A stretch of DNA of 64,000 bases from Clostridia bacterium (GTDB taxonomy: Bacteria; Bacillota; Clostridia; UMGS1840). The notes below the pieces were generated by a model that was given only the letters and a program-made list of their open reading frames with translations, was not told where the DNA came from and made no database searches. The DNA lies in the NCBI GenBank assembly GCA_045638525.1, contig JAZUBQ010000023.1:154656-218655 (forward strand). The letters are read 5' to 3'. Positions 1 to 16,598 of the stretch are shown here, in pieces; within the stretch, counting starts at the first letter, position 1, and each line of letters starts with the position of its first letter. The position numbers and the translations under genes were made by a program.

Positions 1-765
1 CAATATTCCGACGAAGAAAAACAAGGTGAATTTACCGATATTTATGCACTTGCGGCAACTTATTATAAACTGGTTACCGGAAAAACTCCTCCGGATGCCA
101 GAACCCGTGCCGTTCACGACAGCATTGAACGCTTGGACTGTGAGTGTGAAGGAGTCAGCCATCATATTGGTTTAACCATTCATCAGGCATTGTCGTTAAA
201 TTATCGGCAAAGACCACAGAATGTTGATGAATTTTTAGATGATTTGTTGGGACGTCCGGCATATTCAGACGGCTCCCCCGAGCCTACTAATGCAGAATTG
301 TTGCAACAGCCCACCGAAGAAATCAAACAACAGTCGTTTTTTAAACGGATGTTTGGGGAAAAACCGGAGAAAAAAGAAAAGCTTGTCCAACAGGAAGTTC
401 AGCCGGAATATGTCGGTGGCGGTTTTGTGGGAATTGCAACTACGGTTACTCCCTTTGTGCGAGTGGTAAGCGGTTCCATCAATTTGGGGCAGTGGAGTAT
501 TCCTCCTGATCATGAACTAAGTCTGGGCAGAGATGTCAACCAGTGTGATTTGGTCATTAACGGACAATCCATCAGCCGAAAGCATTGCACCGTGATGTAT
601 TCTTCTTCAGGCAACTATTTTGTGCTGACAGATTATTCTTCCAACGGCACCTTTTTGTCAGATGGAACACGGCTGCAACCGGGTGCTGCCTATGCGTTGG
701 ATGTGGGTAGTGTGATATTATTGGCATCTCAGAATTATATTATGGAATTGGGAGTGAAAGAATGA
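1..765 (+). CDS. Ser/Thr protein kinase with C-terminal FHA domain (5'-truncated by window edge)
   Basis: Frame 1 is open from base 1 and reads QYSDEEKQGEFTDIYALAATYYKLVTGKTPPDA (kinase subdomains VIII-IX). It runs into the tracked ORF 133..765, whose C-terminus has FHA motifs LSLGRD..ISRKH..DYSSNGT. No clear TM segment. Confidence 0.85.
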   Translation, partial: QYSDEEKQGEFTDIYALAATYYKLVTGKTPPDARTRAVHDSIERLDCECEGVSHHIGLTIHQALSLNYRQRPQNVDEFLDDLLGRPAYSDGSPEPTNAELLQQPTEEIKQQSFFKRMFGEKPEKKEKLVQQEVQPEYVGGGFVGIATTVTPFVRVVSGSINLGQWSIPPDHELSLGRDVNQCDLVINGQSISRKHCTVMYSSSGNYFVLTDYSSNGTFLSDGTRLQPGAAYALDVGSVILLASQNYIMELGVKE

Positions 766-1700
766 AACCAAACAAGAAAACACCGCAATCCAAAAGAACA
801 AATGCACACGAATTAACAAATATTATTCCGGCAAAAACCGGAACCAAAGCTAAGAATCCAAAAAAGAATCAGAAAGCAAAGGAACACGTTCACATCAGAG
901 AATATCACGAGCTGGAATTTCACATTCCCGTAAATTGCATTGAAATTTACGGAGCGCAGATTTTAGGCTCCCGTGATACACAGCAGGATGCCTTTTCGGT
1001 GTCCGGCTCTACCGATGTTTTTTCAGATGAAACCCCGATGGGGTGGGCGGTTGTTTGTGACGGAATGGGAGGGATGTCTTCCGGTGAAGTTGCAAGTCAG
1101 ACTGCAGATGCGGTAATGCATCAGATTTTGGGTAGCACTTCCTTAGATTCTAATATTCCGGAACTGCTTCGTCAGGCGGTTTTTCTGGCAAATGAGGAAG
1201 TAAAAAAAATCACAGCCGGCACCACAGATGTCAGCGGCACCACCTTAGTCAGCGTGGTGGCAAACGGCAATCAGCTTTATTATGCGTCGGTAGGTGACAG
1301 CAGAATTTACCTTTGTCGGGGAAATGAAATTGCACAGATTACCCGTGACCACAACTATGCACTGGAGCTGGACCAAAAGGTGGCAGCCGGTGAAATGACT
1401 ATGGAGGAAGCGTTGGTACAATCCCAACGGGAAGCGTTAATCAGCTATGTTGGAATTTCTGAATTGGAACTTTGCGATATTTCCGAGGAACCGATTCTTT
1501 TGCATAGCGGCGATATTGTCCTCTTATGCAGTGACGGGCTGACTAAGGTTTTGCCTGATGAAGAAATTTTAAGACTGGTGAATGCCAATCGGAACAGTAC
1601 GAAAAAAATTGTGGATGTACTGTTGCAGGAAGTGCAAATGGCATGTGTCAGAAAACTGGATAATACCACAATCGCAGTCTTAAAATACCAAAACGGATAA
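762..1700 (+). CDS. PP2C-family (PPM) Ser/Thr protein phosphatase
   Basis: Motifs GSRDTQQDA, VCDGMGG, SGTT, VGDSR, TRDH, LCSDGL, DNTT. Lys-rich N-terminal extension. ATGA overlap with the upstream stop. Confidence 0.93.
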   Translation: MKPNKKTPQSKRTNAHELTNIIPAKTGTKAKNPKKNQKAKEHVHIREYHELEFHIPVNCIEIYGAQILGSRDTQQDAFSVSGSTDVFSDETPMGWAVVCDGMGGMSSGEVASQTADAVMHQILGSTSLDSNIPELLRQAVFLANEEVKKITAGTTDVSGTTLVSVVANGNQLYYASVGDSRIYLCRGNEIAQITRDHNYALELDQKVAAGEMTMEEALVQSQREALISYVGISELELCDISEEPILLHSGDIVLLCSDGLTKVLPDEEILRLVNANRNSTKKIVDVLLQEVQMACVRKLDNTTIAVLKYQNG

Positions 1701-1747
1701 AAAAACAATAATATATAACAAAAAAGACAAAAAAAGGAGAGAACATT

Positions 1748-2410
1748 ATGAATTTAACAAGATGTTCACAAGGTCACTTTTACGATGCAGACACCAATGC
1801 AACTTGTCCGCATTGTCAGGGTGGAAAAGGCAACGACGAAACTATGATTTTACAGCGTAAGGTGGAAGACGATTCCAAAACCATTCCGCTGACCGAGGCA
1901 ATCAAACCTCAGCCGGAAGTTGCAAAAACCGTAAGCAAAACCAATATGGGTGTTAACATGGGTTCCGGTGTTACTATGGTACAGGATGATAACGAAAAAA
2001 CCATCAGCTTTGCGAAAGAAAAAGTTGGTCGTGAACCGGTAGTAGGTTGGTTGGTTTGCGTGGAAGGTCCCCACAAAGGCAGTGACTTCCGCTTAAAAAC
2101 CGGCAAAAACTTTATCGGTCGTGGAAGCAATATGGATGCGGCTTTAACCGAAGACAAATCGGTTTCCAGAGACAAACATGCCATCGTTTTATATGAACCC
2201 AGAAAGCACACCTTCTTGGTACAACCCGGTGAATCCAGAGAACTCTGCTACTTAAATGAAGAAGTGGTATTGTCTGCTCAGGTATTAAAACGCAACGACG
2301 TGATTACCGTTGGTGATTCCAAACTGATGTTCTTCCCCTGTTGTGACGTCATTTTCAACTGGGATATGGCAGACAAAGCGGAAGAAACCAAAGCTGATTC
2401 TAAAGAATAA
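1748..2410 (+). CDS. FHA-domain protein with N-terminal Cys/His zinc-ribbon-like motif
   Basis: N-terminal CSQGH..CPHC, Thr-rich linker, then FIGRG..VSRDKH FHA core. RBS AAGGAG upstream. Confidence 0.8.
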   Translation: MNLTRCSQGHFYDADTNATCPHCQGGKGNDETMILQRKVEDDSKTIPLTEAIKPQPEVAKTVSKTNMGVNMGSGVTMVQDDNEKTISFAKEKVGREPVVGWLVCVEGPHKGSDFRLKTGKNFIGRGSNMDAALTEDKSVSRDKHAIVLYEPRKHTFLVQPGESRELCYLNEEVVLSAQVLKRNDVITVGDSKLMFFPCCDVIFNWDMADKAEETKADSKE

Positions 2411-2430
2411 TAGTTTAGGAGGGAAATTTT

Positions 2431-3228
2431 ATGTTTTACTACTTATATTGTTTAACTCAGCATTACATTGCAAAAAAACTAGGTAATAATGATACCTGGA
2501 TGGCATATGTACCCTTTGCCCGTAACGTTCAGAGAATGAGAATGGTAAATATGCCCATGTGGAAGCTGCTGTTTGTTGGTAGTGCTTTCACTTCTGCATT
2601 CAGTTCTCTGTTAATCGGTTTGGTTGCATGGTTGTTTGCTTCCATGAAACCTGCACTTGGTATTGCTGTTGGCAGTATTTTAAGCTTAGTATACTATGTT
2701 CTGTTTATCATCTATACTTACGAATTCCAGAGTAAAATCGCTGCGAAATTCGGCTTCCAGAAAGCACCTTATGCACTGGTTCAGATGTTTTTAAAACCCG
2801 TTGGTATCGTACTTGAATACATGATCGCATTAAGCGACAGATTCTATGTTGGTAAAATCGGCGTTGGAAATAACGGAAATAGCGGAAACAATGGTAATAC
2901 CACCGTTGATCCTTCTACCATCGGTCTGTTAGGTATTTCCGGTATGTATCAGGGTGCAAAATTCACCATGAAAGCCGGTGACCAGTTTGTCATCGGTCGT
3001 GACGGTACCTTAGCAAATGTTATCATTTCTTCTAACGGAGATAAAGTAAGCAGAAGACATTGTACCGTTACCTTTAACGCTGCTACCTGCAGATACGAAG
3101 TAACCGACCATTCCAGCAACGGTACCTATCACGGTAACGAACGTCTGTTAAAAGGTCAGTCTACTCCGATTGAAAGAGGCACCACCATCGTAATCGGTGA
3201 CAAAATGAATCAGTTTAAACTGATGTAA
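2431..3228 (+). CDS. Membrane protein with C-terminal FHA domain
   Basis: Hydrophobic N-terminal half with several predicted TM helices, Gly/Asn linker, then VIGRD..VSRRH..DHSSNGT. RBS AGGAGG. Confidence 0.82.
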   Translation: MFYYLYCLTQHYIAKKLGNNDTWMAYVPFARNVQRMRMVNMPMWKLLFVGSAFTSAFSSLLIGLVAWLFASMKPALGIAVGSILSLVYYVLFIIYTYEFQSKIAAKFGFQKAPYALVQMFLKPVGIVLEYMIALSDRFYVGKIGVGNNGNSGNNGNTTVDPSTIGLLGISGMYQGAKFTMKAGDQFVIGRDGTLANVIISSNGDKVSRRHCTVTFNAATCRYEVTDHSSNGTYHGNERLLKGQSTPIERGTTIVIGDKMNQFKLM

Positions 3229-3266
3229 TTGTTTTGGATATTCCAAAATAATTGCTTAGGATGTTT

Positions 3267-3302
3267 TCTCGGGGGAAGTTAGGATGCTTTCCCCGGGATT
3301 TT
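3267..3302 (+). terminator. Putative intrinsic terminator after the FHA genes
   Basis: Stem CGGGGGAAG/CTTTCCCCG with an 8-nt loop, followed by a short T run. Confidence 0.45.
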
Positions 3303-3443
3303 CCTTAATTTTCTATACTATTATATATAATAACGTTAGAAGCGGTAAGCAGATACGATAGCCGCCAAATTGCAGATTGACTGCTATCCTGTCTGCTTAA
3401 GCAGTTTTTGGTATAAAAAAACAAAACTTGGGAGGATAAGAGA

Positions 3444-5666
3444 ATGAATCAGGATATTTGTTTAGGTTGTTTTGAACCCTTAAACGGATTTGACGTGTGC
3501 TGCCATTGCGGATGGCATCAGGATGCTGTGCCGGAACATGCATATCATTTGAAGCCGGGAACCATACTGCAAGGAAGATACATTGTGGGAAATTCTGTTG
3601 GTATGGGTGGTTTCGGGATTACCTATAAAGCATGGGATGCCAATTTAAACACCTTGGTTGCAATTAAAGAATTTTATCCTGCCGGTTTGGTAAGCCGTGT
3701 CCCGGGAGAAAAAGAGTTGGTTATCTTCAGTGGTGATAAGGAAGAACAGTTCCATGGCGCAATGACCCGATTTTTAGCGGAAGCAAAAACCATGGCAAAA
3801 TTCACCGGCCACCCCAATATTGTGCACGTGTTTGATTTCTTCCAGGAAAATCAGACTGCCTACATCGTAATGGAATATCTGGACGGGATTACGGTAAAAC
3901 AGTTTTTAGAGTCCAGCCCCGATCAGAAACTGCCGATAGAAACTGCCACCGAAATTATTTTGAGCGTACTCAATGCATTGTCTGAAATGCATTCTAAAAA
4001 AATCATTCACCGTGATATTTCGCCTGATAATATTCAGATTACCAGTCAGAATCAGGTTAAAATTTTCGACTTTGGTGCTGCCAGACTGACCAAAGAAGAC
4101 GAAGAGCAGACCCTTTCCATTGTCGTAAAAACCGGTTACACACCGCCGGAGCAGTACCGCGGAAAAAGTAAACAGGGCGCATTTACGGATTTATACAGTG
4201 TGGGTGCCGTTCTTTATAAATTGATTACGGGTCTGACTGCCGATGAATCCATTGACCGTATTGTAGAAGATACTTTGCAAAAGCCCTCCAAACTTGTGGA
4301 TGAGGTTGATTCCAATCTGGAAAAAGTGATTATGAAAGCAATGGCGTTAAAGCCGGAGCTTCGTTTCCAGACTGCCGCACAGTTCAGAGATGCATTGCTT
4401 AACAAAAAGAATGTAGACTATCCTGAAATCGAGTTAAAAAAACGCCGTCGTATCCGTTTATTGATTACTGCGGTTATGGCAGTGTTTACCATTGCGTTTT
4501 TCACAGCCTTTGGCTTATATATCACTTCCGAAGGGGAAGACCCGTTGGTTTGTGATAACGGTGCTATCACCGTTTGTCTGTCTGTCAGTGATAATCCGGA
4601 TGTTGCGAAGACAGAACAACAAATGTATCAGGATATTATTGATACCTTTATAGAAGAAGCAAAAAAAGAAACCCAAAGCCGTCCCGAAGGCAATGAATTT
4701 GCGGTAGAAGCTGTTTTTGTTCCCCAGAGCCAGTATCGTGACTATGTGGATCAAGCGGTTGCGGAAGGAAAGGCTCCCACTGTGTTCCATACCGATGCCT
4801 TCAAATCAGATTTAGGAAACTATGCTTCCAAACTCGACTTATTGGTGGATTCCATTACAGCGGAAGATTTTATAATTTTAGACGAATATGACAGCGTATA
4901 TCCTGCCGGATACGAAATACCGACAGGGTTCTATGCGGGTGCTATTTATGTGAACAAAGCAGCAGCAAAAGCCGCAGGTGTCGATATTACACAGGCAAAA
5001 CCGGTCACCGAGCTGTTGGAAAGTGCAACCACCACCAATGGAGTGGCAACCATTGCCATTGCAGGAGATAATGTGGACGATACTCTGGCAGTTATGATTG
5101 AAGAAGACCTTTATAATGGAAAATCCATCAGCAAACAGAGTGTTCAGGCATTTGACATCATCGGAAAAGCTATGAACAATCAGGCATTTTCTTATTCTCC
5201 TGTTTCCTCACTGCAGCAGTTCTATGCAAATCAGCTGGTATATTTGGTTGACGATACCACAGCTTTGGAATCTCACCATCAGCATATTCCCGGATATTAT
5301 ACCGTATATCCTCTGGCAAGAGACAATGGCTTGATCATCACCATGACAAAGCATCTGGGAGTTTCCAAATCTTCGGATGAAAATTCCAAAAAAATCGGAA
5401 TGCAGTTGATTCGTTTTATGCTCTCCGACTATGCGCAGGATGCATTGCACATCCGTAACAGCACTGCAATTCCCGTAAATCCCAACATGAAGGATTATTA
5501 TATTTCCTTTAACAACGACCTTTCGTTTGTGGGAGACTATGACGAGTATATCATCAACGGACAAAATCGTTTTGATGTATACCAATTTGGTTCAAAAGTA
5601 TATGCCGACATTATGATTCCCAACGGAGATTACTCAAAAATCACAGACTATCTGGAAATGAAATGA
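3444..5666 (+). CDS. Transmembrane Ser/Thr kinase with extracellular solute-binding-protein-like domain
   Basis: N-terminal CLGC..CCHC, then GMGGFGITY, VAIKEF, HRDISPDN, DFGAA, GYTPPEQ, DLYSVG. TM LLITAVMAVFTIAFFTAFGLYI. The ~380 aa ectodomain resembles family-1 sugar SBPs (e.g. LGVSKSS..IGMQLIRFMLSDYAQ..TAIPVN). Confidence 0.85.
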   Translation: MNQDICLGCFEPLNGFDVCCHCGWHQDAVPEHAYHLKPGTILQGRYIVGNSVGMGGFGITYKAWDANLNTLVAIKEFYPAGLVSRVPGEKELVIFSGDKEEQFHGAMTRFLAEAKTMAKFTGHPNIVHVFDFFQENQTAYIVMEYLDGITVKQFLESSPDQKLPIETATEIILSVLNALSEMHSKKIIHRDISPDNIQITSQNQVKIFDFGAARLTKEDEEQTLSIVVKTGYTPPEQYRGKSKQGAFTDLYSVGAVLYKLITGLTADESIDRIVEDTLQKPSKLVDEVDSNLEKVIMKAMALKPELRFQTAAQFRDALLNKKNVDYPEIELKKRRRIRLLITAVMAVFTIAFFTAFGLYITSEGEDPLVCDNGAITVCLSVSDNPDVAKTEQQMYQDIIDTFIEEAKKETQSRPEGNEFAVEAVFVPQSQYRDYVDQAVAEGKAPTVFHTDAFKSDLGNYASKLDLLVDSITAEDFIILDEYDSVYPAGYEIPTGFYAGAIYVNKAAAKAAGVDITQAKPVTELLESATTTNGVATIAIAGDNVDDTLAVMIEEDLYNGKSISKQSVQAFDIIGKAMNNQAFSYSPVSSLQQFYANQLVYLVDDTTALESHHQHIPGYYTVYPLARDNGLIITMTKHLGVSKSSDENSKKIGMQLIRFMLSDYAQDALHIRNSTAIPVNPNMKDYYISFNNDLSFVGDYDEYIINGQNRFDVYQFGSKVYADIMIPNGDYSKITDYLEMK

Positions 5667-5677
5667 GGTAACATAGG

Positions 5678-8080
5678 ATGCAATTATCTAACGAAACTGT
5701 CATTGGCAAACGCTATCAGATTTTGAGACCGAGTAACCAACAAACAGAGGAGATAAACACCTATATCTGTTTGGATAAAACCAATGGCAATACGGTAATT
5801 TTAGCAGAATTTTTTCCTGAATATGCCGAGCGTAAAGAAGACAATCGAGTGGATTATAAAATGCTGCCTGATGATGGTCAGGCGGCATTTCAGGAGGATT
5901 TTTACTGGAAAAAACGGTTTGGCGTTTTGCCCACAGTTCCTGCTGCTTATGAATTGATTTCCGAAAACAACACTTACTATATTGCTTATGAGGATGTTGG
6001 TGTCAATTCGGTTGGCAGACATATTGCAAGAAACCGTCCGTTTACCTACGACTCCGTGCGGCGGTTGTTACTTGCACTTTTGTATACCAATCGTGAGCTT
6101 TTGCGGTTTGGTTTATGCCAGGCGGAGTTTTTACCCCAGAATGTGGTAATCACTGCGGATGGCGAAATTAAACTGAGAGATTTTCGTCCCACGAAAAATC
6201 CGGATGCTCCTGATTTAGCGGTAAGATCTATCGCCGCCCTCGGTTATTATATGATTACCGGCAAACAGCCGGACGCATCTTCCAAATCGTCAGGGATTGC
6301 TTCGGGAAGCAACCTTTCCCGTCTTGCAAAATATTTAAAATGGGTTTACAATCTGCCGCTTGGTGCTATCACCGTTGAGCAGATGATTTCTCATGCCCAA
6401 ATCAATTTTGATGTGGACCTTTCCGAGCAACCGGCACCTATCGGCGCATCGCAGGAACCAAGCATTGCGGATTCACCGGTAACTGCACAGAAAAAACTTC
6501 CTCTTTGGGCAGTCATCACCGCAAGCTGTGTCGTTCTTTGTCTGGTGATTGGTATGATTGCTCTTCTTGCACATGGTGCAACGAAGGCGGTTGATGCTAC
6601 CAATACCGACTTAGGTTTGTGGTATTATACCGAGGACCCGACCGACGTAAAATCGGCACAGGTACTCTATTTTGTGGAAGGCGATAAGCAAGATAAAAAT
6701 TTTGTTGACTTGGTAAAAGGAGACTCTGTTCATCAATACAATAATATTGCCAATGTGGATAAAATTTATCTGAAGGTAGAACAGGAAAATACCGAAGGAT
6801 TTTCTTTGAACGTAACTGCCAATCAAGAAGAAATTTCTGCAAATGATGCAGGTTACTACGAAATTTTGGTAGATGGGAAAACCGATGTAGTTGTGAAAAA
6901 TAGCTACAGCCGTTGGAAATTTTTTAAAAAAAGCTCCATTTATCAGTTTAGCTGCAGTCAGAACGAATTTGCAAAATTGGCAGGTATTTCCTATCTGATT
7001 GACGAGGGTGAAGCAAAAGACGTGCCAAATTTTGAGCCTGATACCAAAGCTTATGCGATGGAAGAACCGATCCCCGTAACAGCTAAAATATTGCAAATTC
7101 TGGATCAAATACCGGAAGGTGAAGACTTTGAGGTTACATATACTCCCTCTGCCAAGATTGATGTGGCAGAGATAGTTAAGGATGCCAAAGTTGGAGAAGA
7201 AACGCCTGTTTCTGTCAGCATCACCGTAACCGATAACACAAAAGGTTTGGACGAAAATACATATACCTTGCAGTTTGTTGTCGAAGCAAAACAACCGGTG
7301 GTTGTGCCGGATGTAATTGGGAAATCAGAAGCCCAAGCAGTGAAAGCTTTGCAAAACGCAGGTTTATATGCGAAGGTAAAGGATAAAAATGCAAAGCAAG
7401 AACGTGAAAACGGAAAGGTGCAAAGCAGTAATCCGGCGGCAGGAATAGAAGTGGAACCCGGTTCTACCATAACCATTTCGGTTGGACGTTGGGAACAACC
7501 GAAATCAACCGCAACTCCGAAATCAACCGCAAAACCAACCGCAACTCCGAGGCCAACTCCCACACCTGTGCCATCTATATCGTCGTCTCCGGAACCGGAC
7601 CTCTCTGTACCGCCAACACCAGGCGGAACAGATTCTTATATCAATGGGGATGACATTACAACAGTTCCTGATGTGGTAGGAAAAACGGAAGCAGATGCGA
7701 AAAAAACTATACAAAATGCAGAATTGACTGTGACCGTCAGCTACAAAGATGTAGATGACAAAACTAAAAACGGCAAAGTGCTTTCCGTCAGCCCCTCTGT
7801 AGGAACTTCTGAACCAAAAGGAACCACCGTAACCATAACCGTAGGAACGTATGTAGAACCCACTGAAGAAGAGAAAAAAGTAACAGTTCCCAATGTGTTG
7901 GGAATGTCTGCGGAAGATGCGGAAAAAACTTTGCAAGCGTTAAAATTAAACGTGAACGTAGAATATGTGGAAAATAACGCCCAAGTCGGCAAGGTTATCA
8001 GCAGTGATACTGACCCGGGAACTTCAGTGAAACCGGGAACTATAGTAACAATAACGGTCGGAAAATTAGCCGATTCCTAA
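5678..8080 (+). CDS. Transmembrane pseudokinase with cadherin-like beta-sandwich and 3 PASTA domains
   Basis: Kinase-like N-terminus colinear with neighbours but with catalytic motifs replaced (VILAEF, CQAEFLPQN, DFR). TM LWAVITASCVVLCLVIGMIALLA. Three VP(D/N)V(I/V/L)G PASTA repeats and a Pro/Thr linker. Confidence 0.75.
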   Translation: MQLSNETVIGKRYQILRPSNQQTEEINTYICLDKTNGNTVILAEFFPEYAERKEDNRVDYKMLPDDGQAAFQEDFYWKKRFGVLPTVPAAYELISENNTYYIAYEDVGVNSVGRHIARNRPFTYDSVRRLLLALLYTNRELLRFGLCQAEFLPQNVVITADGEIKLRDFRPTKNPDAPDLAVRSIAALGYYMITGKQPDASSKSSGIASGSNLSRLAKYLKWVYNLPLGAITVEQMISHAQINFDVDLSEQPAPIGASQEPSIADSPVTAQKKLPLWAVITASCVVLCLVIGMIALLAHGATKAVDATNTDLGLWYYTEDPTDVKSAQVLYFVEGDKQDKNFVDLVKGDSVHQYNNIANVDKIYLKVEQENTEGFSLNVTANQEEISANDAGYYEILVDGKTDVVVKNSYSRWKFFKKSSIYQFSCSQNEFAKLAGISYLIDEGEAKDVPNFEPDTKAYAMEEPIPVTAKILQILDQIPEGEDFEVTYTPSAKIDVAEIVKDAKVGEETPVSVSITVTDNTKGLDENTYTLQFVVEAKQPVVVPDVIGKSEAQAVKALQNAGLYAKVKDKNAKQERENGKVQSSNPAAGIEVEPGSTITISVGRWEQPKSTATPKSTAKPTATPRPTPTPVPSISSSPEPDLSVPPTPGGTDSYINGDDITTVPDVVGKTEADAKKTIQNAELTVTVSYKDVDDKTKNGKVLSVSPSVGTSEPKGTTVTITVGTYVEPTEEEKKVTVPNVLGMSAEDAEKTLQALKLNVNVEYVENNAQVGKVISSDTDPGTSVKPGTIVTITVGKLADS
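7664..7860 (+). repeat. PASTA-coding DNA module, copy 1 (copy 2 at 10613-10809)
   Basis: 7664-7787 and 10613-10736 differ at only 3 of 124 positions by manual alignment. Similarity decays over the remainder. Confidence 0.9.
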
Positions 8081-8131
8081 ACTTGCATCACAATAAACAT
8101 CAAAACTCAGTAAACTAAAGGGAGAATAGCC

Positions 8132-11100
8132 ATGTCTTTATGTTTAGGATGTATGGATGAAAAAGGTGATTCCTATATTTGTCCTTATTGCGGATATGTG
8201 GAAGGAACACCTCCGAAAGAAAGCTATCATATTAAACCCGGTGAAATTCTTCACGGGAAATACATTATAGGCAAGGTGCTTGGCTACGGTGGTTTTGGAA
8301 TCACCTATATCGCCTTGGACTACACACTGGGACGAAAAGTTGCGATTAAAGAATTTTTGCCCAGTGATTTTGCCACCCGTATGCCCGGTGAAAAGTGTGT
8401 AACTGTATACAATGGAGAAGCTACCCATCAGTTTGGGGCGGGGCTGGAACGTTTTGTGGAAGAAGCACAGCGTTTGGCAAAGTTCAATTCCATGGGTAGT
8501 ATTGTAGATATTTATGACACCTTTATTGAAAACAGTACCGGTTATATTGTAATGCAATATCTGGCGGGCGATACGGTGAAGGAACTCATTGAGCGAAACG
8601 GCGTTATGCCTTATGAAAGTGCCCGTTTGATTATTGTAGAAGTTTTAAAAACCCTGGAAGCAGTACATAAAGAGGGTATTATTCACCGTGATATTTCTCC
8701 CGATAATATTTTTATTACCAACGATAATCAGATTAAGCTCCTTGATTTTGGTGCCGCACGGTATGCGTCCGGCTTTCACTCCAAAAGTTTGTCGGTTATC
8801 TTAAAACCCGGCTATGCTCCTGAGGAACAATACCGCAGTCACGGAAATCAGGGTCCCTGGTCGGATGTGTATGCTACGGCGGCAACCCTTTATAAAATGA
8901 TTACGGGAATCACCATTGAGGAAGCAATGGAACGAACCGTTTCGGACAAAGTAAAATCACCTTTGGAGTTAGGGGTCGATTTGCCGAATGGTGCGAATAC
9001 CGCCATTATGAATGCGTTAAATATTCACGCAGAGCTTCGTACCCAGTCTGCCGGTGATTTTATCCGTGAATTGGCAAGTGACGAGGTAGAGCGTGTGATT
9101 GATAAACCGGTCAAAACCGATTCCGGCAAAATGCCGCTGTGGTTGAAAATTGCCATTCCCACTGTGATTGTAATTGTAATTACACTTGTTACTTTAGTGG
9201 CAACAGGAGTGATTAAAATTTCAGGGGTGGGTGGAATGGATAGAGAGGTTGATTTTGAAGACCGTGTTCCTGATGTTCTCAATAAAATGATGAATGTTGG
9301 GGAAGAAATTTTGGCGGATAAAGGACTTGGTATGCAGATTGTTGCTCAGGATTATGATGAATTTGCCGAAAAAGACATCATTAAGACCCAGTCCCCCGAC
9401 AAAGGAAGAGAAATAGTAAACTGTTATTATGATGCAGAGTCCAACCGTTATCTGGTATATGTTATGGTCAGTGGCGGTCCTGCACCAAAAATGGTTCCCG
9501 ATGTTTCGGGAATGTCCGCCGAAGAGGCTACTGCCACCTTACAGGCATTAGGCTTTTTGGTAGAAACAGCAGAAGAATACAGTCAGGATATTGCTGCAGG
9601 AATGGTCATCAGCCAGGATATTGTAAATCAGGAATATGCCCATGGTTCCACCTTGTATTTGGTTGTTTCCAAAGGGGAAATGAAGGTGGACGAATCCAAA
9701 ATGCACAAAATTCCGGATTTGGTTGGTTCAGACTATGAACAGGCATATAAAAAGCTCACATCACTTGGTATGTATGTGGTGAAGAAAGAAGAAACCAGTA
9801 CCAAGCCGGAAAATCAGGTTCTTTCTCAGTCAGTGGCAAAAGATACCGAATGTCCGGAAGGTACCATCATTGAGCTGACTGTTTCCAATAACAGCATTGT
9901 CATTCCCGACGTTCAGTATAAAGAGAAAAACGAAGCGAAGAAAATCCTGGAAGCTGCAGGGGCAAAAGTTGTGATAAAAGAAGTGGAAATTGCCAACGTT
10001 GCGGCAGGTCTTGTTATCAGTCAGTCTAAGAGTGGTAAAGCAACTGCCGGAACCACCGTAACTCTGCAGGTTTCCAAAGGCGAAGCAAACAAAACGGTAC
10101 AGGATGCTATGGCAGACATCCAAAAACAGAATATTGATAATGAAACCAAAAACACCGCAAAAGATGCAAAAACTGTATCGGTTCCCAATGTTTTGAATCA
10201 GACGTTGTCCAAAGCGAAGGCATCTTTACAGAGTGCCGGTTTGCAGGTGAAAATCAGCTATGTGGATGTATCCAACAAAGCTCAGGACGGAAAAGTTGTT
10301 GATATCTATCCGGCGAGCGGTACTGCAGTTGCACAGGGCAGTTCGGTTATGATATCAATCGGGCAGTATGCTGCATCCACTACAGTGGTAGTCCCCAATG
10401 TGGTAGGAAAATCCTCAAGTCAGGCGGTTGCACAGCTAAAACAAGCGGACTTGAAGGTATCTGCATACTATACAGAGGTAACCGATAAAAAACAAGATGA
10501 TAAGATTCTTGACATCTGGCCATCTGTCGGACAGTCCGTGGAAGCAGGCAGTACTGTGGACGTAACGATAGGGAAATACAGTGAACCTGTTGAAAAAGTC
10601 GTTGAAATTGTGGTTCCTGATGTGGTAGGAAAAACGGAAGCAGATGCGAAAAAAACTATACAAAATGCAGGATTGACCGTGACCGTCAGCTACAAAGATG
10701 TAGATGACAAAACTAAAAACGGCAAAGTACTTTCCGCAAGTCCTTCTGTTGGAACTTCTGTCAAAGAAGGAAGCAAAGTAACCATAACCGTAGGAACGTA
10801 TTCTGAACCGGTACCCGAGATGGTAACAGTTCCCGATGTAATGGGAAAAACAGAAGCAAATGCCAAAAGCACTTTGCAAAATTCAGGATTAAAAGCCACT
10901 GTAAAATATCAGGATGTAACAGATCAGGCGAAAGATGGCAAAGTTGTAAGCATGTCTTATGCAAGTGGTAAATCCGTAGAAAAAGGAACTACCGTAACCA
11001 TAACGGTGGGGCGGTATGTTGCTCCGAAAAAAACAGTTCCAAATGTGACAGGACGTTCAGTAGCTGATGCGAAATCGCTGTTGGAAGGCAACGGTTTAAA

Positions 11101-11632
11101 GGTGAATGTAGTTGAGCGTTCCGTAACAGAGGAAAGTCAGAACGGGATGGTTCTTAGTTCAGCACCTTCATCCGGCAGTTCCGTAGAAGCAGGAACTACG
11201 GTGAATATAACGGTTGGTAAACTGCAGAAAGTAACCATTCCCGATGTAACGGGAGGAAGCTATACCAAGGCAGAACAACTTTTGAACAGTGCAGGATTAG
11301 AAGCAGAAAAAGCTACTGAAAATGTAACCGATGAAGAATTGCACGGCAAGGTAATTGCTACCAGTCCAGCTGAAGGGAAAAAGGTGGCATACGGAACCAA
11401 AGTTACCGTAACAGTAGGGAATTATAAAAACACACCGAAAGTGCCGGTTCCTGATGTAGAAGGAATGCCATTGGACGAGGCCACCCAAATACTGTTGGAA
11501 GCCGGATTTTCAGTCAAAGGGAAATCCCACAGCGATGAGTATGTTAGAAATCCTGTTGTTCAGTATACCAATCCCTTCCCCGGTGATAGCGTTCCGCAAG
11601 GAAGCACAATTACAGTATATACAGGAGAATAG
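8132..11632 (+). CDS. Transmembrane Ser/Thr kinase with 11 PASTA repeats
   Basis: CLGC..CPYC N-terminus, intact GYGGFGITY, VAIKEF, HRDISPDN, DFGAA, GYAPEEQ, SDVY. TM IAIPTVIVIVITLVTLVATGVI. 11 repeats starting (V/I)P(D/N)(V/L) counted by eye. Confidence 0.92.
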   Translation: MSLCLGCMDEKGDSYICPYCGYVEGTPPKESYHIKPGEILHGKYIIGKVLGYGGFGITYIALDYTLGRKVAIKEFLPSDFATRMPGEKCVTVYNGEATHQFGAGLERFVEEAQRLAKFNSMGSIVDIYDTFIENSTGYIVMQYLAGDTVKELIERNGVMPYESARLIIVEVLKTLEAVHKEGIIHRDISPDNIFITNDNQIKLLDFGAARYASGFHSKSLSVILKPGYAPEEQYRSHGNQGPWSDVYATAATLYKMITGITIEEAMERTVSDKVKSPLELGVDLPNGANTAIMNALNIHAELRTQSAGDFIRELASDEVERVIDKPVKTDSGKMPLWLKIAIPTVIVIVITLVTLVATGVIKISGVGGMDREVDFEDRVPDVLNKMMNVGEEILADKGLGMQIVAQDYDEFAEKDIIKTQSPDKGREIVNCYYDAESNRYLVYVMVSGGPAPKMVPDVSGMSAEEATATLQALGFLVETAEEYSQDIAAGMVISQDIVNQEYAHGSTLYLVVSKGEMKVDESKMHKIPDLVGSDYEQAYKKLTSLGMYVVKKEETSTKPENQVLSQSVAKDTECPEGTIIELTVSNNSIVIPDVQYKEKNEAKKILEAAGAKVVIKEVEIANVAAGLVISQSKSGKATAGTTVTLQVSKGEANKTVQDAMADIQKQNIDNETKNTAKDAKTVSVPNVLNQTLSKAKASLQSAGLQVKISYVDVSNKAQDGKVVDIYPASGTAVAQGSSVMISIGQYAASTTVVVPNVVGKSSSQAVAQLKQADLKVSAYYTEVTDKKQDDKILDIWPSVGQSVEAGSTVDVTIGKYSEPVEKVVEIVVPDVVGKTEADAKKTIQNAGLTVTVSYKDVDDKTKNGKVLSASPSVGTSVKEGSKVTITVGTYSEPVPEMVTVPDVMGKTEANAKSTLQNSGLKATVKYQDVTDQAKDGKVVSMSYASGKSVEKGTTVTITVGRYVAPKKTVPNVTGRSVADAKSLLEGNGLKVNVVERSVTEESQNGMVLSSAPSSGSSVEAGTTVNITVGKLQKVTIPDVTGGSYTKAEQLLNSAGLEAEKATENVTDEELHGKVIATSPAEGKKVAYGTKVTVTVGNYKNTPKVPVPDVEGMPLDEATQILLEAGFSVKGKSHSDEYVRNPVVQYTNPFPGDSVPQGSTITVYTGE
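10613..10809 (+). repeat. PASTA-coding DNA module, copy 2
   Basis: Near-identical to 7664-7860; encodes VPDVVGKTEADAKKTIQNA..SYKDVDDKTKNGKVLS. Confidence 0.9.
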
Positions 11633-11662
11633 TTTCTTTTCCCGATAAGGAGGAAATATTTC

Positions 11663-12994
11663 ATGAATCGAATGATTGTAAGGATTTGGAAGCGTGCAAT
11701 ATCTGTTGGTCGGATGTTACTGTTGTATTGCCTGGCGGTTTGTTTTGCCGGTTTGTTATCGGGTTGTAGCCTTGATTTGGTGCCTAATACCGAGTTGCAG
11801 TTGTTTTATCATACCGGTGACTCTGCACAGCTGGTGCCACTGGAATCCGTTAAGCAGACAACAGAGGAATCTCGCAATAATGTATACCATTGTACCAATC
11901 CGGATCCCGACATTTTCTCTGAAACCGGAGTGATGTATCTGCAGGTTTTGGGGAATAAATACGGAGAAATCACGGTGAAATGTGATGACAAAGTAATTGC
12001 ATCAGAAGATGGTTTTTATCCCATTGATGTAGAAAAAAACGCAAAAGTTGTAATTACCAACGAATATAACTTTTTGCATTTGTATCAAACTACCACAACC
12101 TATTCTTTTCAGTTTCAGATGTCATCTGCAGCAAAGATCACAGATATTTCTTATCGGCTGGATAATGGTTTAAAGGTCACAGATTACACTGTATTTGATT
12201 TTGATTCTGATACCACAGAGTACGTGGTGGAGAAAAAAATTCCGTATGATACGTTGGAGCTTGTGTTAAATTGTGTGCCGAAAGATGAGGAATTTGAGCT
12301 GACATATTCTCCTTCCCGACGGATTCTCATAAAATCGGAAAAAGGGGAAGAAGTTGCCCTTCCGGTTACTGTGACAGTGAAAGATCCAAATGGGAAATAT
12401 ACTGAAAATACATATACGATAAAGTTTATTGTGGAAGAAAATCCTGTGCGTGACTTGCGTATCAAACATACGCCGTCACCATCACCGACTCCGGAAGATG
12501 GATTAGAACCCATACAAACGGAGACTCCGGCTCCGACAGCAGTTCCAACACCCGAGGTGACTGCGACTCCGGTGCCGCAACCTACGGTGAAACCGACGGT
12601 AACAGCGATACCGTTGCCAAATCCAACAACGCCCGGTTGGGTGACGGTACCTGCAACTCCAACTCCACCCCCTTCTCCCACGCTAACGCCAACTCCAACG
12701 CCCACCCCTACACCAAGCCCAACGCCTACCCCGTTTTCTGGGGAAAAAACAGTTATTGTTCCGAATATGATTGGTATGCATGTGGGTAAAACCGGTGGTG
12801 AAGTTGCGAAAAGCATTTTCGAGCAGTATCCCGAATTGGAGGAAATGCGAATCCAAATTGAGTTTGTCCCTTCAATGTCAAACGGGGGGAGTGGCATTGT
12901 TCCTTCGACGCTAAAAGGTGTAGTTACCACTGTTGTTCCGAGTCCCGGAAGTATTCTGCAGACCGGAAGCTATGTAACGATTTCTGTGAAATAG
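11663..12994 (+). CDS. Lipoprotein with cadherin-like domain, Pro/Thr-rich stalk and C-terminal PASTA-like domain
   Basis: Lipobox LLSGC. The middle region aligns by eye with the pseudokinase ectodomain (AKITDISY..ENTYTIKF vs AKLAGISY..ENTYTLQF). The C-terminus VPNMIGMHVGKTG aligns with the end of 13126..15570. Confidence 0.75.
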   Translation: MNRMIVRIWKRAISVGRMLLLYCLAVCFAGLLSGCSLDLVPNTELQLFYHTGDSAQLVPLESVKQTTEESRNNVYHCTNPDPDIFSETGVMYLQVLGNKYGEITVKCDDKVIASEDGFYPIDVEKNAKVVITNEYNFLHLYQTTTTYSFQFQMSSAAKITDISYRLDNGLKVTDYTVFDFDSDTTEYVVEKKIPYDTLELVLNCVPKDEEFELTYSPSRRILIKSEKGEEVALPVTVTVKDPNGKYTENTYTIKFIVEENPVRDLRIKHTPSPSPTPEDGLEPIQTETPAPTAVPTPEVTATPVPQPTVKPTVTAIPLPNPTTPGWVTVPATPTPPPSPTLTPTPTPTPTPSPTPTPFSGEKTVIVPNMIGMHVGKTGGEVAKSIFEQYPELEEMRIQIEFVPSMSNGGSGIVPSTLKGVVTTVVPSPGSILQTGSYVTISVK

Positions 12995-13125
12995 TGGGTT
13001 AAATGTTCGGTATGAAAAATAATTTAGTTTTAAATAAAAAATTTTCAGACCTCAAATCAAACGAAGAAAAGGAGGAAATGTTTTTTATATATTTATGAAA
13101 TATTTATAAAAAACAGCAAAGAAGT

Positions 13126-15570
13126 ATGAATAAATGTTTAGGATGTATGGAAGATAAAGAGGAGTCTCTTTCCGTTTGTCCCCATTGCGGATATGTGGAA
13201 GGGACACCTCCGAAGGAGATTTATCACATTACTCCCGGTCAGGTTCTTCATGGAAAATATATTGTTGGCAGAGTGCTGGGATACGGTGGATTTGGTATTA
13301 CCTATATTGGTTGGGACTATACCTTAGACCGTAAGGTTGCCATCAAAGAATTTTTACCCAGTGATTTCGCTACCCGTATGCCCGGTGAAACGATGATTAC
13401 GGTATATAACGGGGAACCTACCGTACAGTTTGAAGCAGGTCTGGAACGCTTTATCGAAGAAGCACAGAGACTGGCAAAATTCAATTCAGTAGGCAGTATT
13501 GTAGATATTTATGATACTTTTATTGAAAACAATACGGGTTATATTGTAATGCAGTGTCTGGAAGGGGAAACCGTGAAAGACCTGCTCAAGCAAAACGGTG
13601 TTATGCCGTATGAAAGTGCCCGTCTGATTATTGTAGAAATCTTAAAAACCTTAGAAGAAGTACATAAAGAGGGGATTATCCATCGTGATATTTCTCCCGA
13701 TAATATTTTTATTACCAACGATAACCAGATTAAATTGCTGGACTTTGGTGCCGCACGATATGCGTCCGGTTTCCACTCCAAAAGTTTGTCGGTTATTCTA
13801 AAACCCGGTTATGCGCCGGAAGAACAATACCGCAGTCACGGAAATCAGGGCCCCTGGTCAGACGTGTATGCAACGGCGGCAACTCTATATAAAATGATTA
13901 CAGGGATTACCATTGAGGAATCCATGGAACGAACGGTTTGTGACAATGTGAAATCTCCTCTGGAGTTAGGTGTTGCGATTCCGGAAGGTGCCAACACTGC
14001 GATTATGAATGCGTTAAACATTCACGCCGAGCTTCGTACCCAATCTGCCGGCGATTTTATTCGCGAATTGGAAAGCGAGCAGGTAGAACGTATTATTGAT
14101 AAACCCAAAAAATCAGATTCCGGCAAAATGCCGTTATGGCTGAAAATTGCAATTCCCTCTATTGTTGGTGTTGCAATGATTCTTGTAACCTTAGTTGCTG
14201 TTGGTGTGATTAAAATTCCTTATCTGATTGATGTAATAGGTCCGGATGCAGATTTGACAAATCGTGTTCCCAGTGTCATCAATAAAATGATGAAGGAAGG
14301 GGAACAAATTCTGGCAAAAGAAAGTCTGGGTATGCAGATTATCGGTCAGGATTATGATGAATTTGCTGAAAAAGATATCGTTAAGACCCAGTCTCCCGCC
14401 GGCGGAAGACTGATTGCAGAATGTTCTGTGGTTGACGATAATAAACGTGTGGTATTCGTTGTTGTCAGCGGTGGTCCGGCTCCCAAAATGGTTCCCGATG
14501 TGTCAGGGATGACAAGGGAAGAAGCAACAGCCCTTCTGCAGTCCTTAGGTTTCTTGGTAGAAAGCGAAGAAGAATATAATCAGGATGTTGCTGTTGGCGT
14601 AATCATCAGCCAGGATATCGTAAACCAGGAATATGCATACGGTTCTACCTTGCATCTGGTTGTTTCCAAAGGGGAAATGAAGGTAGACGAATCCAAAATG
14701 CATAAAATTCCGGATTTAGTTGGTTTAGACTATGATCAGGCATATAAAAAGCTGACTGCTATCGGTATGTATGTGGAAAAACGAGATGAACCCAGCACCA
14801 AGAAGGAAAATCAGGTTCTTTCTCAGTCAGTGGAAAAGGATACTGAATGTCCGGAAGGTACCACCATTGTGCTGACTGTTTCCAATAACAGTATCGTTAT
14901 TCCTAATGTTCAGTATAAAGAGAAAAATGAAGCGAAGAAACTGATTGAAGCAGCAGGAGCAAAAGTTGTAATCAAAGAAGTAGAAAGCTCCACCGTTGCA
15001 GCAGGTCTGGTTATCAGTCAGTCTAAGAGCGGTAAAGCAACTGCAGGAACAACCGTAACTCTGCAGGTTTCTAAGGGCGAAGCTTCCAAAGCAGCAAAAG
15101 AAGCGAAACAGGATATTGCACAGCAGCAAAAGAATAATCCGACTCCGAAACCGGCAACTCCTGCACCTGCAACTCCGAAGCCGGCGACTCCGAAACCGGC
15201 AACTCCTGCACCGGCAACCCCAAGACCGGCAACCCCGGCACCTGCAACACCGAAGCCCGCAACACCGAAACCGGCAACTCCTGCACCTACTCCCGAACCG
15301 ACTCCTGCACCTGCAACTCCGAAACCGGCAACTCCTTCACCGACACCGGCTCCGGAAAAGAAATCAGTTGTTGTGCCGAATATGAATGGTATGTATGTAG
15401 GAAAAAGCGGCTCAGAAGCTTCGAAAAACATTTTTGCACAGTATCCTGAATTGAAGGAACTGTCAGTTAACTTCGAATTTGTAGGAAATTCGGGTAGGGT
15501 TAGCAATATTGTGCCCGCACCGGGTTCTGTGTTAACTTCTAAGTCATCACTTACAATTTACATTAACTAA
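13126..15570 (+). CDS. Transmembrane Ser/Thr kinase with 4 PASTA repeats, PATP-repeat stalk and terminal PASTA-like domain
   Basis: Paralog of 8132..11632, with an 87-aa identical stretch from VHKEGIIHRD to TGITIEE. All catalytic motifs intact; TM present. Confidence 0.92.
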   Translation: MNKCLGCMEDKEESLSVCPHCGYVEGTPPKEIYHITPGQVLHGKYIVGRVLGYGGFGITYIGWDYTLDRKVAIKEFLPSDFATRMPGETMITVYNGEPTVQFEAGLERFIEEAQRLAKFNSVGSIVDIYDTFIENNTGYIVMQCLEGETVKDLLKQNGVMPYESARLIIVEILKTLEEVHKEGIIHRDISPDNIFITNDNQIKLLDFGAARYASGFHSKSLSVILKPGYAPEEQYRSHGNQGPWSDVYATAATLYKMITGITIEESMERTVCDNVKSPLELGVAIPEGANTAIMNALNIHAELRTQSAGDFIRELESEQVERIIDKPKKSDSGKMPLWLKIAIPSIVGVAMILVTLVAVGVIKIPYLIDVIGPDADLTNRVPSVINKMMKEGEQILAKESLGMQIIGQDYDEFAEKDIVKTQSPAGGRLIAECSVVDDNKRVVFVVVSGGPAPKMVPDVSGMTREEATALLQSLGFLVESEEEYNQDVAVGVIISQDIVNQEYAYGSTLHLVVSKGEMKVDESKMHKIPDLVGLDYDQAYKKLTAIGMYVEKRDEPSTKKENQVLSQSVEKDTECPEGTTIVLTVSNNSIVIPNVQYKEKNEAKKLIEAAGAKVVIKEVESSTVAAGLVISQSKSGKATAGTTVTLQVSKGEASKAAKEAKQDIAQQQKNNPTPKPATPAPATPKPATPKPATPAPATPRPATPAPATPKPATPKPATPAPTPEPTPAPATPKPATPSPTPAPEKKSVVVPNMNGMYVGKSGSEASKNIFAQYPELKELSVNFEFVGNSGRVSNIVPAPGSVLTSKSSLTIYIN
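15139..15354 (+). repeat. Intragenic 15-nt / 5-aa (PATPK/PATPA) tandem repeat
   Basis: Units such as ccggcaactcctgca and cctgcaactccgaag, with synonymous variation between units. Confidence 0.9.
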
Positions 15571-15589
15571 TGAAAAGTTAATAATATGA

Positions 15590-15627
15590 AAAATGGCTAT
15601 AGCAAAATATTTTGCTATAGCCATTTT
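15590..15627. terminator. Perfect 38-bp palindrome, likely terminator closing the kinase array
   Basis: AAAATGGCTATAGCAAAATATTTTGCTATAGCCATTTT is its own reverse complement and starts about 20 nt after the stop at 15570. Confidence 0.7.
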
Positions 15628-15745
15628 CAGACGATTCCGAAATGATGGTATATTTTTGTATATTTGTCAGAATCAGAAAAACGATTTATTTAAAATGATA
15701 AAAAGAGAATGTTTATTTTTGATTTTAAAAATTAAACGCTGAGGC

Positions 15746-15792: not shown

Positions 15793-15881
15793 GGAGCGGT
15801 ATCGAAGTGGTCATAACGGACATGACTCGAAATCATGATGCCCCTTGAGGGACGTGGGTTCGAATCCCACCCGCTCCGCCA
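15793..15881 (+). tRNA. tRNA-Ser(CGA)
   Basis: GGAGCGG acceptor stem, anticodon loop CTCGAAA, long variable arm, GGTTCGAATCC T-arm, encoded CCA. Confidence 0.93.
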
Positions 15882-16554: not shown

Positions 16555-16598
16555 GTTAAAAAAACCGCCAATCTTGTATCAAGTTTGACGGTTTTTTT

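Follow-up and report, generated by a model that had tools for sequence, protein, structure and literature searches.

The window analysed here is the whole 64,000-nt stretch of contig JAZUBQ010000023.1 from a Clostridia bacterium, and its first 15,570 nt carry the distal nine genes (g1 to g9, Table 1) of an array of about 12 genes for Ser/Thr kinases, PP2C phosphatases, FHA-domain proteins and surface receptors. Our analysis leads us to favour, with moderate confidence, a main function of this array as a multi-input, FHA-routed Ser/Thr signalling unit, whose most likely role would be to sense envelope and glycan signals and to respond through FHA outputs. The complete array would appear to hold four active-looking kinases, one pseudokinase, two PP2Cs and six FHA domains. 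This reading is built on domains, motifs, topology signals, gene order, paralogy and recent duplication, and from these we infer the ligands, the phosphorylation pairs and the output.

The original prediction, made from the letters of the window alone, had described nine consecutive plus-strand signalling genes that begin upstream of base 1. All nine open reading frames (ORFs) were present and co-oriented, and Pfam domain content agreed with signalling parts for g1–g7 and g9, g8 being without a Pfam family. No convincing gene was found on the opposite strand of bases 1–15570, where ORFs such as those at 12184–12930, 6611–7294 and 15018–15506 only mirror the coding strand or Pro/Thr repeats. 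The array does begin upstream of base 1, since g1 is truncated and related loci carry further upstream genes.

An eight-gene core shared across Clostridia

Related loci were gathered from a PP2C scan of GTDB species genomes, from the neighbourhoods of g5 orthologs and from a blastp ortholog map. The order PP2C, Zn-ribbon-FHA (Zn-FHA), vWA-FHA, kinase-FHA, PP2C, Zn-FHA, transmembrane (TM)-FHA and kinase fused to a solute-binding protein (SBP) domain was conserved in 12 further Clostridia loci (L001–L008, L011, L012/13, L014 and L015), a recurrence that argues against grouping by chance. The core therefore consists of eight genes, or of seven where the kinase-FHA gene is missing. Identity of the g5 orthologs was 77% in L001, 73% in L011, 60% in L012/13, 52% in L014 and 40% in L015, and each of these five loci has four same-strand genes upstream of its g2-type PP2C gene, encoding in order a second PP2C, a second Zn-FHA protein, a VWA+FHA protein of about 570 aa and the Zn-ribbon-kinase-FHA protein that corresponds to g1. 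The same order was seen in the seven Lachnospiraceae loci from metagenome-assembled genomes (L002–L008), at about 41–45% PP2C identity and with the kinase-FHA gene missing in two. Flanks before the first PP2C vary between loci (PHP and M28 peptidase genes; rubrerythrin and SpoVA genes; acetyltransferases), which places the start of the array at that gene (PP2C#1).

The vWA protein of L001 has a cleavable signal peptide, a DxSxS metal ion-dependent adhesion site, an immunoglobulin (Ig)-like segment, one TM helix with basic residues, and an FHA domain. Given the signal peptide and the single TM helix with basic residues, the vWA domain is extracellular and the FHA domain intracellular. The nine genes first described are thus real, although the unit is larger than had been proposed, the relatives also encoding another PP2C, another Zn-FHA and a vWA-TM-FHA protein that is secreted; the accompanying guess of a conserved PP2C/FHA core with a variable receptor tail was borne out by the gene order in the 12 further loci.

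A reduced relative, L016 (7077–22076), encodes a kinase, a PASTA kinase, two PP2Cs and a Zn-FHA protein. It is flanked on one side by a STAND-type NTPase with tetratricopeptide (TPR) repeats and on the other by a LytTR regulator and an EssC-like FHA-FtsK/SpoIIIE ATPase, the latter being the one connection to a type VII secretion system (T7SS) gene among the loci examined.

Phosphatase and FHA-domain proteins

The truncated g1 product holds a kinase C-lobe (aa 1–90) and an FHA domain (aa 174–241; Pfam FHA, 1e-14), and is 69% identical to residues 233–490 of the 490-aa kinase-FHA protein of L001, in which Pkinase and FHA domains were both found. In the phosphatase g2 the N-terminus is extended by a basic stretch of about 65 aa, and the motifs for metal binding (DGMGG, GDSR, SDGL and DNTT) are in place; g2 matched Pfam PP2C at 1e-18 and, in the PDB, tPphA-type phosphatases (2e-24), PppA (1e-21) and PstP (2e-17). 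With the NCBIfam Stp1 model (NF033484, equivalog cut-off 230 bits) g2 scored 154 bits and the upstream PP2C of L001 179 bits.

In g3 a C-x3-H...CxxC motif precedes the FHA domain, which was detected by Pfam FHA and Yop-YscD_cpl and gave weak PDB matches to GarA/Rv1827-type FHA domains. Orthologs of g3 occupy the same place in L001–L008 and L011–L015, with the Zn-FHA not resolved in L007, and we regard g3 as a candidate output or adaptor protein. The membrane protein g4 has hydrophobic N-terminal segments and an FHA domain at aa 187–256 (Pfam, 5e-12), and its top NCBIfam match was the TagH-type FHA of the type VI secretion system (T6SS), at 7e-9 and under the cut-off. About 60 of the 150 best 50%-identity cluster representatives in a database of 1.84 billion proteins matched g4 over its full length, and the family has the specificity needed of an array marker. 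The residues that bind pThr (GR, SxxH, NG) occur in g1 and g4 and, for the most part, in g3. Scores of the array FHA proteins with FhaB_Rv0019c were 28, 24 and 52 bits (cut-off 125).

Receptor kinases and their ectodomains

All catalytic motifs are retained in g5 (Pfam Pkinase, 7e-40), g7 and g9, each of which also has an N-terminal Zn ribbon called at motif level. In PDB searches the kinase domains of g7 and g5 were nearer PpkA than PknB, PknA or StkP: the best match of the g5 domain was PpkA (3e-44, versus 1e-35 for PknB), as was that of the g7 domain (2e-42 versus 2e-25), and bit scores for g7 and g5 were 149 and 155 with PpkA, 93 and 126 with PknB and 78 and 102 with StkP. The NCBIfam Stk1 model (NF033483, equivalog cut-off 450 bits) gave 614 bits for g7, 297 for g9 and 211 for g5. 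The g7 score was built on six matched repeat stretches and is inflated by the 11 PASTA repeats of this protein. Since PpkA is the closest solved relative, the Zn ribbons are N-terminal, and g9, g5 and both PP2Cs score below the Stk1 and Stp1 cut-offs, these kinases are not ordinary PrkC orthologs.

The ectodomain of g5 had no Pfam match even at E=10, and phmmer against the PDB returned noise; a homolog search with the ectodomain alone found no match, whereas the full-length query found homologs, and full-length orthologs carry SBP_bac_8 or SBP_bac_1. A profile of six ectodomain sequences gave a marginal SBP match (E 0.048), and a 12-sequence profile searched against the PDB matched, at about 1e-8 and along the greater part of its length, sugar SBPs that include Lmo0181, MalE1 and AbnE. 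The AlphaFold (AF2) model of this region (pLDDT 87, pTM 0.87) had only family-1 oligosaccharide SBPs as top Foldseek matches in the PDB (E 5e-16, TM score 0.6–0.72). With ortholog domains, profile and model in agreement, the g5 ectodomain is a solute-binding fold of the oligosaccharide type, in line with the SBP-like sugar sensor first suggested for it.

A hidden Markov model (HMM) iterated on the array proteins counted 11 PASTA units in g7, three in g6, and four plus one divergent C-terminal unit in g9, with which the Pfam counts (10, 3 and 4, respectively) were consistent. The 11 units claimed for g7 therefore hold, and of the five claimed for g9 four are clear and the fifth is only a divergent PASTA-like domain. 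The g9 protein is 76% identical to the sole PASTA kinase of L001, and a 15-nt tandem repeat at 15127–15356 encodes its (P-A-T-P-K/A)n linker. Pro/Thr-rich linkers resembling that of g9 also occur in g6 and g8.

Pseudokinase and lipoprotein

The N-terminus of g6 is homologous to the kinase domain of g7 (26% identity, E 2e-18, blastp) and gave no significant Pfam kinase match. Its Gly-loop is lost, VAIK is replaced by VILA, HRD by QAE and DFG by DFR, and the activation segment has lost about 27 aa. Since the same catalytic lesions recur in the L001 ortholog, g6 is a maintained pseudokinase, and the pseudokinase call made in the original prediction is upheld. A search of 5.8 billion proteins with the N-terminal 540 aa returned only three relatives.

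The PASTA units of g6 lie at aa 543–603, 663–723 and 737–795, and the preceding ectodomain (aa 308–539) was modelled by AF2 as two tandem beta-sandwiches (pLDDT 84). Foldseek found weak matches to Ig, cadherin and S-layer tandem domains (E 5e-5 to 1e-3, TM score <0.4), and there was no Pfam match even at E=10. The model and these weak matches agree with an Ig-like or cadherin-like fold, but do not establish cadherin membership, so that the earlier wording 'cadherin-like' is borne out only in part; the possible contact sensing has no basis beyond generic Ig-like folds.

The g8 product has a signal peptide followed by the lipobox LLSGC, as expected of the lipoprotein it had been taken for. It belongs to no Pfam or NCBIfam family, and at E=10 only sub-threshold BSD and PASTA matches appeared. 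It aligned with aa 285–722 of g6 (27% identity, E 1e-21), and its C-terminus is 44% identical to that of g9, with a PASTA half-unit seen there by HMM. From the two-domain alignment to the g6 ectodomain, g8 is a paralog of that ectodomain which lacks the pseudokinase.

Duplication history and the variable tail

Within the core, g3 shares 34% identity (E 7e-44) with the upstream Zn-FHA of L001, and g2 shares 32% (E 4e-22) with the upstream PP2C. The core thus seems to stem from an old tandem duplication in which a module of four genes, for PP2C, Zn-FHA, membrane FHA protein and kinase, was copied. In the upstream copy (module A) the vWA sensor and the kinase are separate proteins, each with an FHA domain; in the downstream copy (module B, g2–g5) a single protein combines the SBP sensor with the kinase, and it is the polytopic membrane protein g4 that carries the FHA domain.

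The genes that follow the core differ from locus to locus. There is one pseudokinase and one PASTA kinase in L001; a pseudokinase, a 122-aa ORF and two PASTA kinases in L012; a pseudokinase and two PASTA kinases in L014; a single 1273-aa PASTA/Big_2 kinase in L015; an FHA-FHA-ABC2 exporter in L006 (14932–17304) and L009 (4772–7162); and a kinase with BspA-type leucine-rich repeats in L010.

In the window the tail was enlarged by a lineage-specific duplication together with exchange of a PASTA unit. The first 670 residues of g7 and g9 are 79% identical, and their DNA is 75–82% identical, with an offset that stays at about 4997 nt throughout. Neither g7 nor g8 has a counterpart in L001, despite a syntenic downstream flank (81% nt identity between 16590–17690 of the window and the DNA downstream of the L001 array). 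PASTA units 1–4 of g7 pair one-to-one with those of g9 (67–89% identity) and units 5–11 group with the PASTAs of g6. Unit 7 of g7 (10613–10809) and unit 2 of g6 (7664–7860) share 89% protein and 90% DNA identity, compared with only about 20–64% for other PASTA units within and between the two genes, which points to recent exchange or conversion of a single unit between these neighbours. The g7/g9 duplication and the g6/g7 unit exchange show that the 'diversified receptor panel' first proposed is in part recent and not old functional diversity.

Array layout and intergenic DNA

Positions of genes and intergenic elements are given in Table 1. The start of g2 lies over the stop of g1 (4 nt overlap), and most gaps are short (g2–g3 47 nt, g3–g4 20 nt, g5–g6 11 nt, g6–g7 51 nt and g7–g8 30 nt), the two larger ones being g4–g5 (215 nt) and g8–g9 (131 nt). 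The strong terminator-like hairpin in the g4–g5 gap also occurs in the L001 alignment, so the array perhaps has at least two transcription units. Beyond g9 a perfect palindromic hairpin likely marks the array end as a bidirectional terminator.

Table 1. Genes, intergenic elements and the adjoining tRNA in the array region of the window.
Feature	Position	Strand	Description
g1	1..765	+	Zn-ribbon-kinase-FHA protein, soluble; 3' part, 254 codons, gene start upstream of the window
g2	762..1700	+	PP2C phosphatase (PP2C#2 of the full array)
g3	1748..2410	+	Putative Zn-ribbon, S/T-rich linker, FHA
g4	2431..3228	+	Polytopic membrane protein, C-terminal cytoplasmic FHA
Terminator-like hairpin	3267..3298	+	13 pairs, 7 G-C, then T-run; in g4–g5 gap
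Conserved non-coding element	3346..3409	+	Upstream of g5
g5	3444..5666	+	Zn-ribbon, Hanks kinase with intact motifs, TM helix, family-1 oligosaccharide-type solute-binding ectodomain
g6	5678..8080	+	Pseudokinase, TM helix, two tandem Ig-like beta-sandwich domains, 3 PASTA
g7	8132..11632	+	Zn-ribbon, kinase with intact motifs, TM helix, 11 PASTA
g8	11663..12994	+	Lipoprotein, two Ig-like domains, Pro/Thr-rich linker, divergent PASTA-like C-terminus
g9	13126..15570	+	Zn-ribbon, kinase, TM helix, 4 PASTA, (PATPK)n linker, divergent PASTA-like domain
Palindromic hairpin	15589..15628	.	Perfect, 18-bp, A/T runs on either side; likely bidirectional terminator of the array
tRNA-Ser	15793..15881		After the array-end hairpin

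The conserved element between the hairpin and g5 (GGCGGTAAGCAGATACGATAGCCGCCAAATTGCAGATTGACTGCTATCCTGTCTGCTTAAGCAG) differs at two of 64 nt from its counterpart in L001 (12580–12650) and is largely kept in L011 (about 9900–9975), in intergenic DNA that has otherwise diverged. It folds into a long imperfect hairpin (-28 kcal/mol, z = -3.7) and carries GCAGAT/TCTGC repeats and a TTGACT hexamer, and an Rfam search of the g4–g5 gap gave nothing above noise. The element may be an RNA leader, or an operator or promoter of the g5–g9 unit.

Comparison with known systems and weighing of alternatives

By sequence and domain set the nearest match to the array was the T6SS threonine phosphorylation pathway of Pseudomonas and Serratia (PpkA/PppA/Fha1-TagH). 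A Hanks kinase, an extracytoplasmic vWA domain (periplasmic in PpkA; PMC1262709), a PP2C and FHA domains are common to both, with PppA among the top PDB matches of the PP2C and the TagH-type FHA at the head of the NCBIfam matches of g4. In contrast to the pathway, the array vWA is joined through a TM helix to an FHA domain, beside a soluble kinase-FHA protein, and not to a kinase; the array also belongs to a Gram-positive-type Clostridium and is set apart by its two PP2Cs, its six FHA domains and its extra receptor kinases of the SBP and PASTA types. The likeness of the kinase domains to PpkA and of the g4 FHA to TagH would suit a regulatory accessory of an FHA-gated machine located elsewhere (EssC of a T7SS, an Rv1747-like FHA-ABC exporter or a pilus), comparable to the gating of the T6SS by PpkA, PppA and Fha1, as would the FHA-FHA-ABC2 exporter within the L006 and L009 arrays and the EssC-like gene next to L016. 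We consider this improbable, however, as the 48 kb downstream in the window and the approximately 2.5–10 kb upstream flanks of L001, L011, L014 and L015 hold no such machine, and the eight-gene core is conserved without a machine gene. T6SS structural genes were found neither in the window nor in the flanks of related loci, and EssC, WXG100 or EssB linkage was absent from the window, L001 and L011–L015, only L016 (34% identity) adjoining an EssC-like gene. A T7SS, T6SS or Tad accessory was accordingly rejected for this clade for want of such flank genes, with L016 as the exception. The L006/L009 exporter, with its two N-terminal FHA domains, has the architecture of Rv1747 of M. tuberculosis (with PknF); it is a candidate phospho-regulated output and does not occur in the window.

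Likeness to housekeeping systems was also evident, in that the actinobacterial fhaA-fhaB-pstP-rodA-pbpA-pknA-pknB cluster and PrkC/PrpC (StkP/PhpP) hold writer, eraser and reader in one locus. The array, too, encodes a PP2C and PASTA kinases together with two FHA proteins, of which one is anchored in the membrane, and this composition mirrors that of fhaA-fhaB-pstP...pknA-pknB. It might thus be the housekeeping PASTA-kinase/PP2C system of this lineage (PrkC-PrpC, StkP-PhpP, or PknB-PstP with FhaA/FhaB), by which peptidoglycan synthesis and division would be adjusted to wall condition, with the extra kinases as paralogous fine-tuners. The kinase-TM-PASTA architecture of g7 and g9, the g7 score above the Stk1 cut-off, the weak FhaB/FipA matches of the FHA proteins and the housekeeping character of the chromosomal surroundings (tRNAs, IleRS, UppP, PolA) fit such a role. 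We nevertheless regard it as unlikely: g9, g5 and both PP2Cs fall below their cut-offs and the g7 score is repeat-inflated, the kinase domains are nearer PpkA than PknB, PknA or StkP and carry N-terminal Zn ribbons, and no RodA/SEDS or class B penicillin-binding protein genes, nor rsgA/rlmN-type neighbours, were found in the examined loci. The core, moreover, has vWA and SBP sensors and is conserved without any PASTA domain, PASTA being confined to the variable tail. An ordinary PrkC/PrpC pair was ruled out by the PpkA-nearest kinase domains and the sub-cut-off Stk1/Stp1 scores.

A role in conflict or threat sensing, akin to TerY-P or actinobacterial Esr, in which detection of phage, epibionts or competitors would trigger an FHA-dependent defence, seems a remote prospect. 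The TerY-P triad of TerY-like vWA, PP2C and Ser/Thr kinase, as described by Anantharaman et al. (2012) and Gao et al. (2020) to the extent reported in PMC11090510, is matched by adjacent vWA, PP2C and kinase genes in L001, L011, L012, L014 and L015 and, by extension, presumably at the window locus. Esr pathways likewise employ vWA, a kinase with its phosphatase, and an FHA output that varies and often has a zinc finger (PMC13622651). The fast-evolving tail, with its duplication and domain exchange and with a g6 N-terminus that has three relatives in 5.8 billion proteins, and the position of the reduced L016, with a STAND NTPase on one side and an EssC-like T7SS ATPase on the other, would also suit such a role. 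However, TerY is a cytoplasmic stand-alone vWA and the TerY-P kinase is fused C-terminally to a Zn ribbon or OB fold (PMC11090510), whereas the array vWA is secreted, membrane-anchored and FHA-fused, and the array kinase has an N-terminal Zn ribbon, a C-terminal FHA domain and no OB fold. Nor is the array linked to Ter, restriction or CoCoNuT genes. PADLOC-DB 2.0, which we take to include TerY-P models, had no match for the vWA-FHA protein, PP2C#2, Zn-FHA or TM-FHA, and the kinases matched only the generic kinase models PD-T4-6, mad6 and MkoA (best 25 of 34–35 matches). The vWA topology, the kinase fusions and the PADLOC result ruled out TerY-P membership. The possibility raised at the outset, that the upstream DNA would reveal a TerY-P, T6SS, T7SS or Tad locus, was therefore realised in part, as relatives do have the vWA/PP2C/kinase triad upstream, but neither the defining TerY-P features nor secretion genes accompany it.

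Functional parallels for the FHA output came from Esr (PMC13622651), ArnA/ArnB of Sulfolobus (PMC6509490) and a vWA-STPK-FHA-PP2C operon of D. radiodurans (bioRxiv 10.64898/2026.01.23.701218), all of which combine a vWA or surface part, a kinase/phosphatase and, as the phosphorylated output, a small FHA protein that often has a zinc finger. ArnA is a ZnF-FHA protein and ArnB a vWA protein (PMC6509490), the array Zn-ribbon-FHA gene directly adjoins the vWA gene, and a PDB search with the FHA domain of the vWA-FHA protein had ArnA among its matches; because the array vWA lies outside the cell, however, it cannot pair with the Zn-FHA as ArnB does with ArnA. Unlike these systems, which depend on MoxR or have a cytoplasmic vWA, the array has many more kinases and FHA domains and lacks a MoxR ATPase and a beta-propeller sensor. 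No AAA+/MoxR gene was found in or beside the array in the annotated loci L001 and L011–L015, where nucleases and toxins were also absent. The SBP and PASTA ectodomains, furthermore, resemble nutrient and wall sensors, and the position and synteny are stable with no mobile-element genes in the window part. With uniform GC content, downstream synteny with L001 and housekeeping neighbours, a mobile or defence island is unlikely.

Several points weigh against the multi-input, FHA-routed signalling unit that we prefer. Module A of the window, upstream of base 1, is extrapolated from relatives at 52–82% identity; the Zn ribbons are motif-level calls without a Pfam match; and no output domain of known DNA-binding or enzymatic activity was found in the array. 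PASTA kinases elsewhere govern wall growth and division, so the tail may be a PrkC-like function beside an unrelated core, and the array is probably split into two transcription units with the receptor part separately controlled.

No component of the array is mechanistically unprecedented, and single proteins that combine a kinase with a solute-binding, FHA or vWA domain have been catalogued (PMC1262709). The array is hence a variant within Hanks kinase/PP2C/FHA clusters and not categorically new. A literature search found no description of its fixed combination and order of genes, which, coverage being incomplete, is an absence of evidence only; we likewise found no named system that fits, as had been remarked in the original prediction.

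Proposed mechanism

In the multi-input signalling unit, an extracellular ligand (a glycan at the SBP domain, a peptidoglycan fragment or lipid II at PASTA, or a metal-dependent ligand at vWA) would activate the cognate kinase. Phosphothreonine on kinases and S/T-rich linkers would recruit the six FHA domains, and the soluble kinase-FHA protein would dock at the vWA-TM-FHA receptor or at primed sites, this protein and the receptor together amounting to something like a split PpkA. The signal would be relayed to the small Zn-ribbon-FHA proteins as phosphorylated outputs, the two PP2Cs would reset the two modules, and g6 and g8 may assist the adjacent PASTA kinases as co-receptors without catalytic activity. 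Convergence of the receptors on shared FHA adaptors, as first envisaged, is plausible. FHA-bearing machines in related arrays, namely the FHA-FHA-ABC2 exporter (L006, L009) and the EssC-like FHA-FtsK ATPase (L016), are possible targets.

A more specific version, which we put forward only tentatively and hold to be doubtful, is an integration hub widely conserved in gut Clostridia, in which oligosaccharides, peptidoglycan fragments and the vWA ligand each have a receptor of their own and the signals pass by pThr-FHA docking to the two Zn-ribbon-FHA proteins, acting directly on gene expression. Host or diet oligosaccharides would then be read by the SBP kinase and peptidoglycan fragments by the PASTA kinases, with the pseudokinase and the lipoprotein as co-receptors, and the whole would be a eukaryote-like network of receptor kinases and adaptors instead of a pair of one kinase and one phosphatase.

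Hanks-type signalling in Bacillota is understood mostly through one PASTA kinase and one PP2C. The array differs in layout, in that two four-gene modules, fixed in order and apparently ancient, are joined to a fast-evolving receptor tail, and it spans several families of gut and other anaerobic Clostridia. Its testable parts are an SBP receptor kinase for ligand screening, a natural pairing of pseudokinase and kinase, the putative split PpkA and two candidate FHA outputs. Should this wiring prove correct, the array would offer a tractable model for the combination of extracellular cues through phosphothreonine-reader adaptors, and would provide a functional annotation for many unnamed gut-metagenome genes.

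Genomic surroundings

GC content is even across the window, and the remainder of it encodes an AbrB-like protein, a NahK-like kinase, NagB, NagA, IleRS, UppP, PolA, RarA, SHMT, GroEL, RecD2, an alkaline phosphatase and an S-layer homology (SLH) protein. A minus-strand tRNA cluster (Asp-Phe-Gly-Cys) lies at 16599–17024, with a Gut-1 RNA (RF01706) just downstream on the same strand at 16484–16558 (72 bits, gathering score 50). Amino-sugar genes at 18022–22265, just downstream of the array, encode the NahK-like kinase, a 443-aa protein without a Pfam match, NagB and NagA, and in L014 NagA and NagB (19145–21081) are directly downstream of the array; this neighbourhood could be plain synteny or a hint of N-acetylglucosamine-type ligands for the SBP and PASTA sensors. 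Two surface-type proteins were also noted, one of 1073 aa with only a weak DUF7369 match (45000–48221, minus strand) and one of 954 aa with S-layer homology domains (52667–55531, plus strand).

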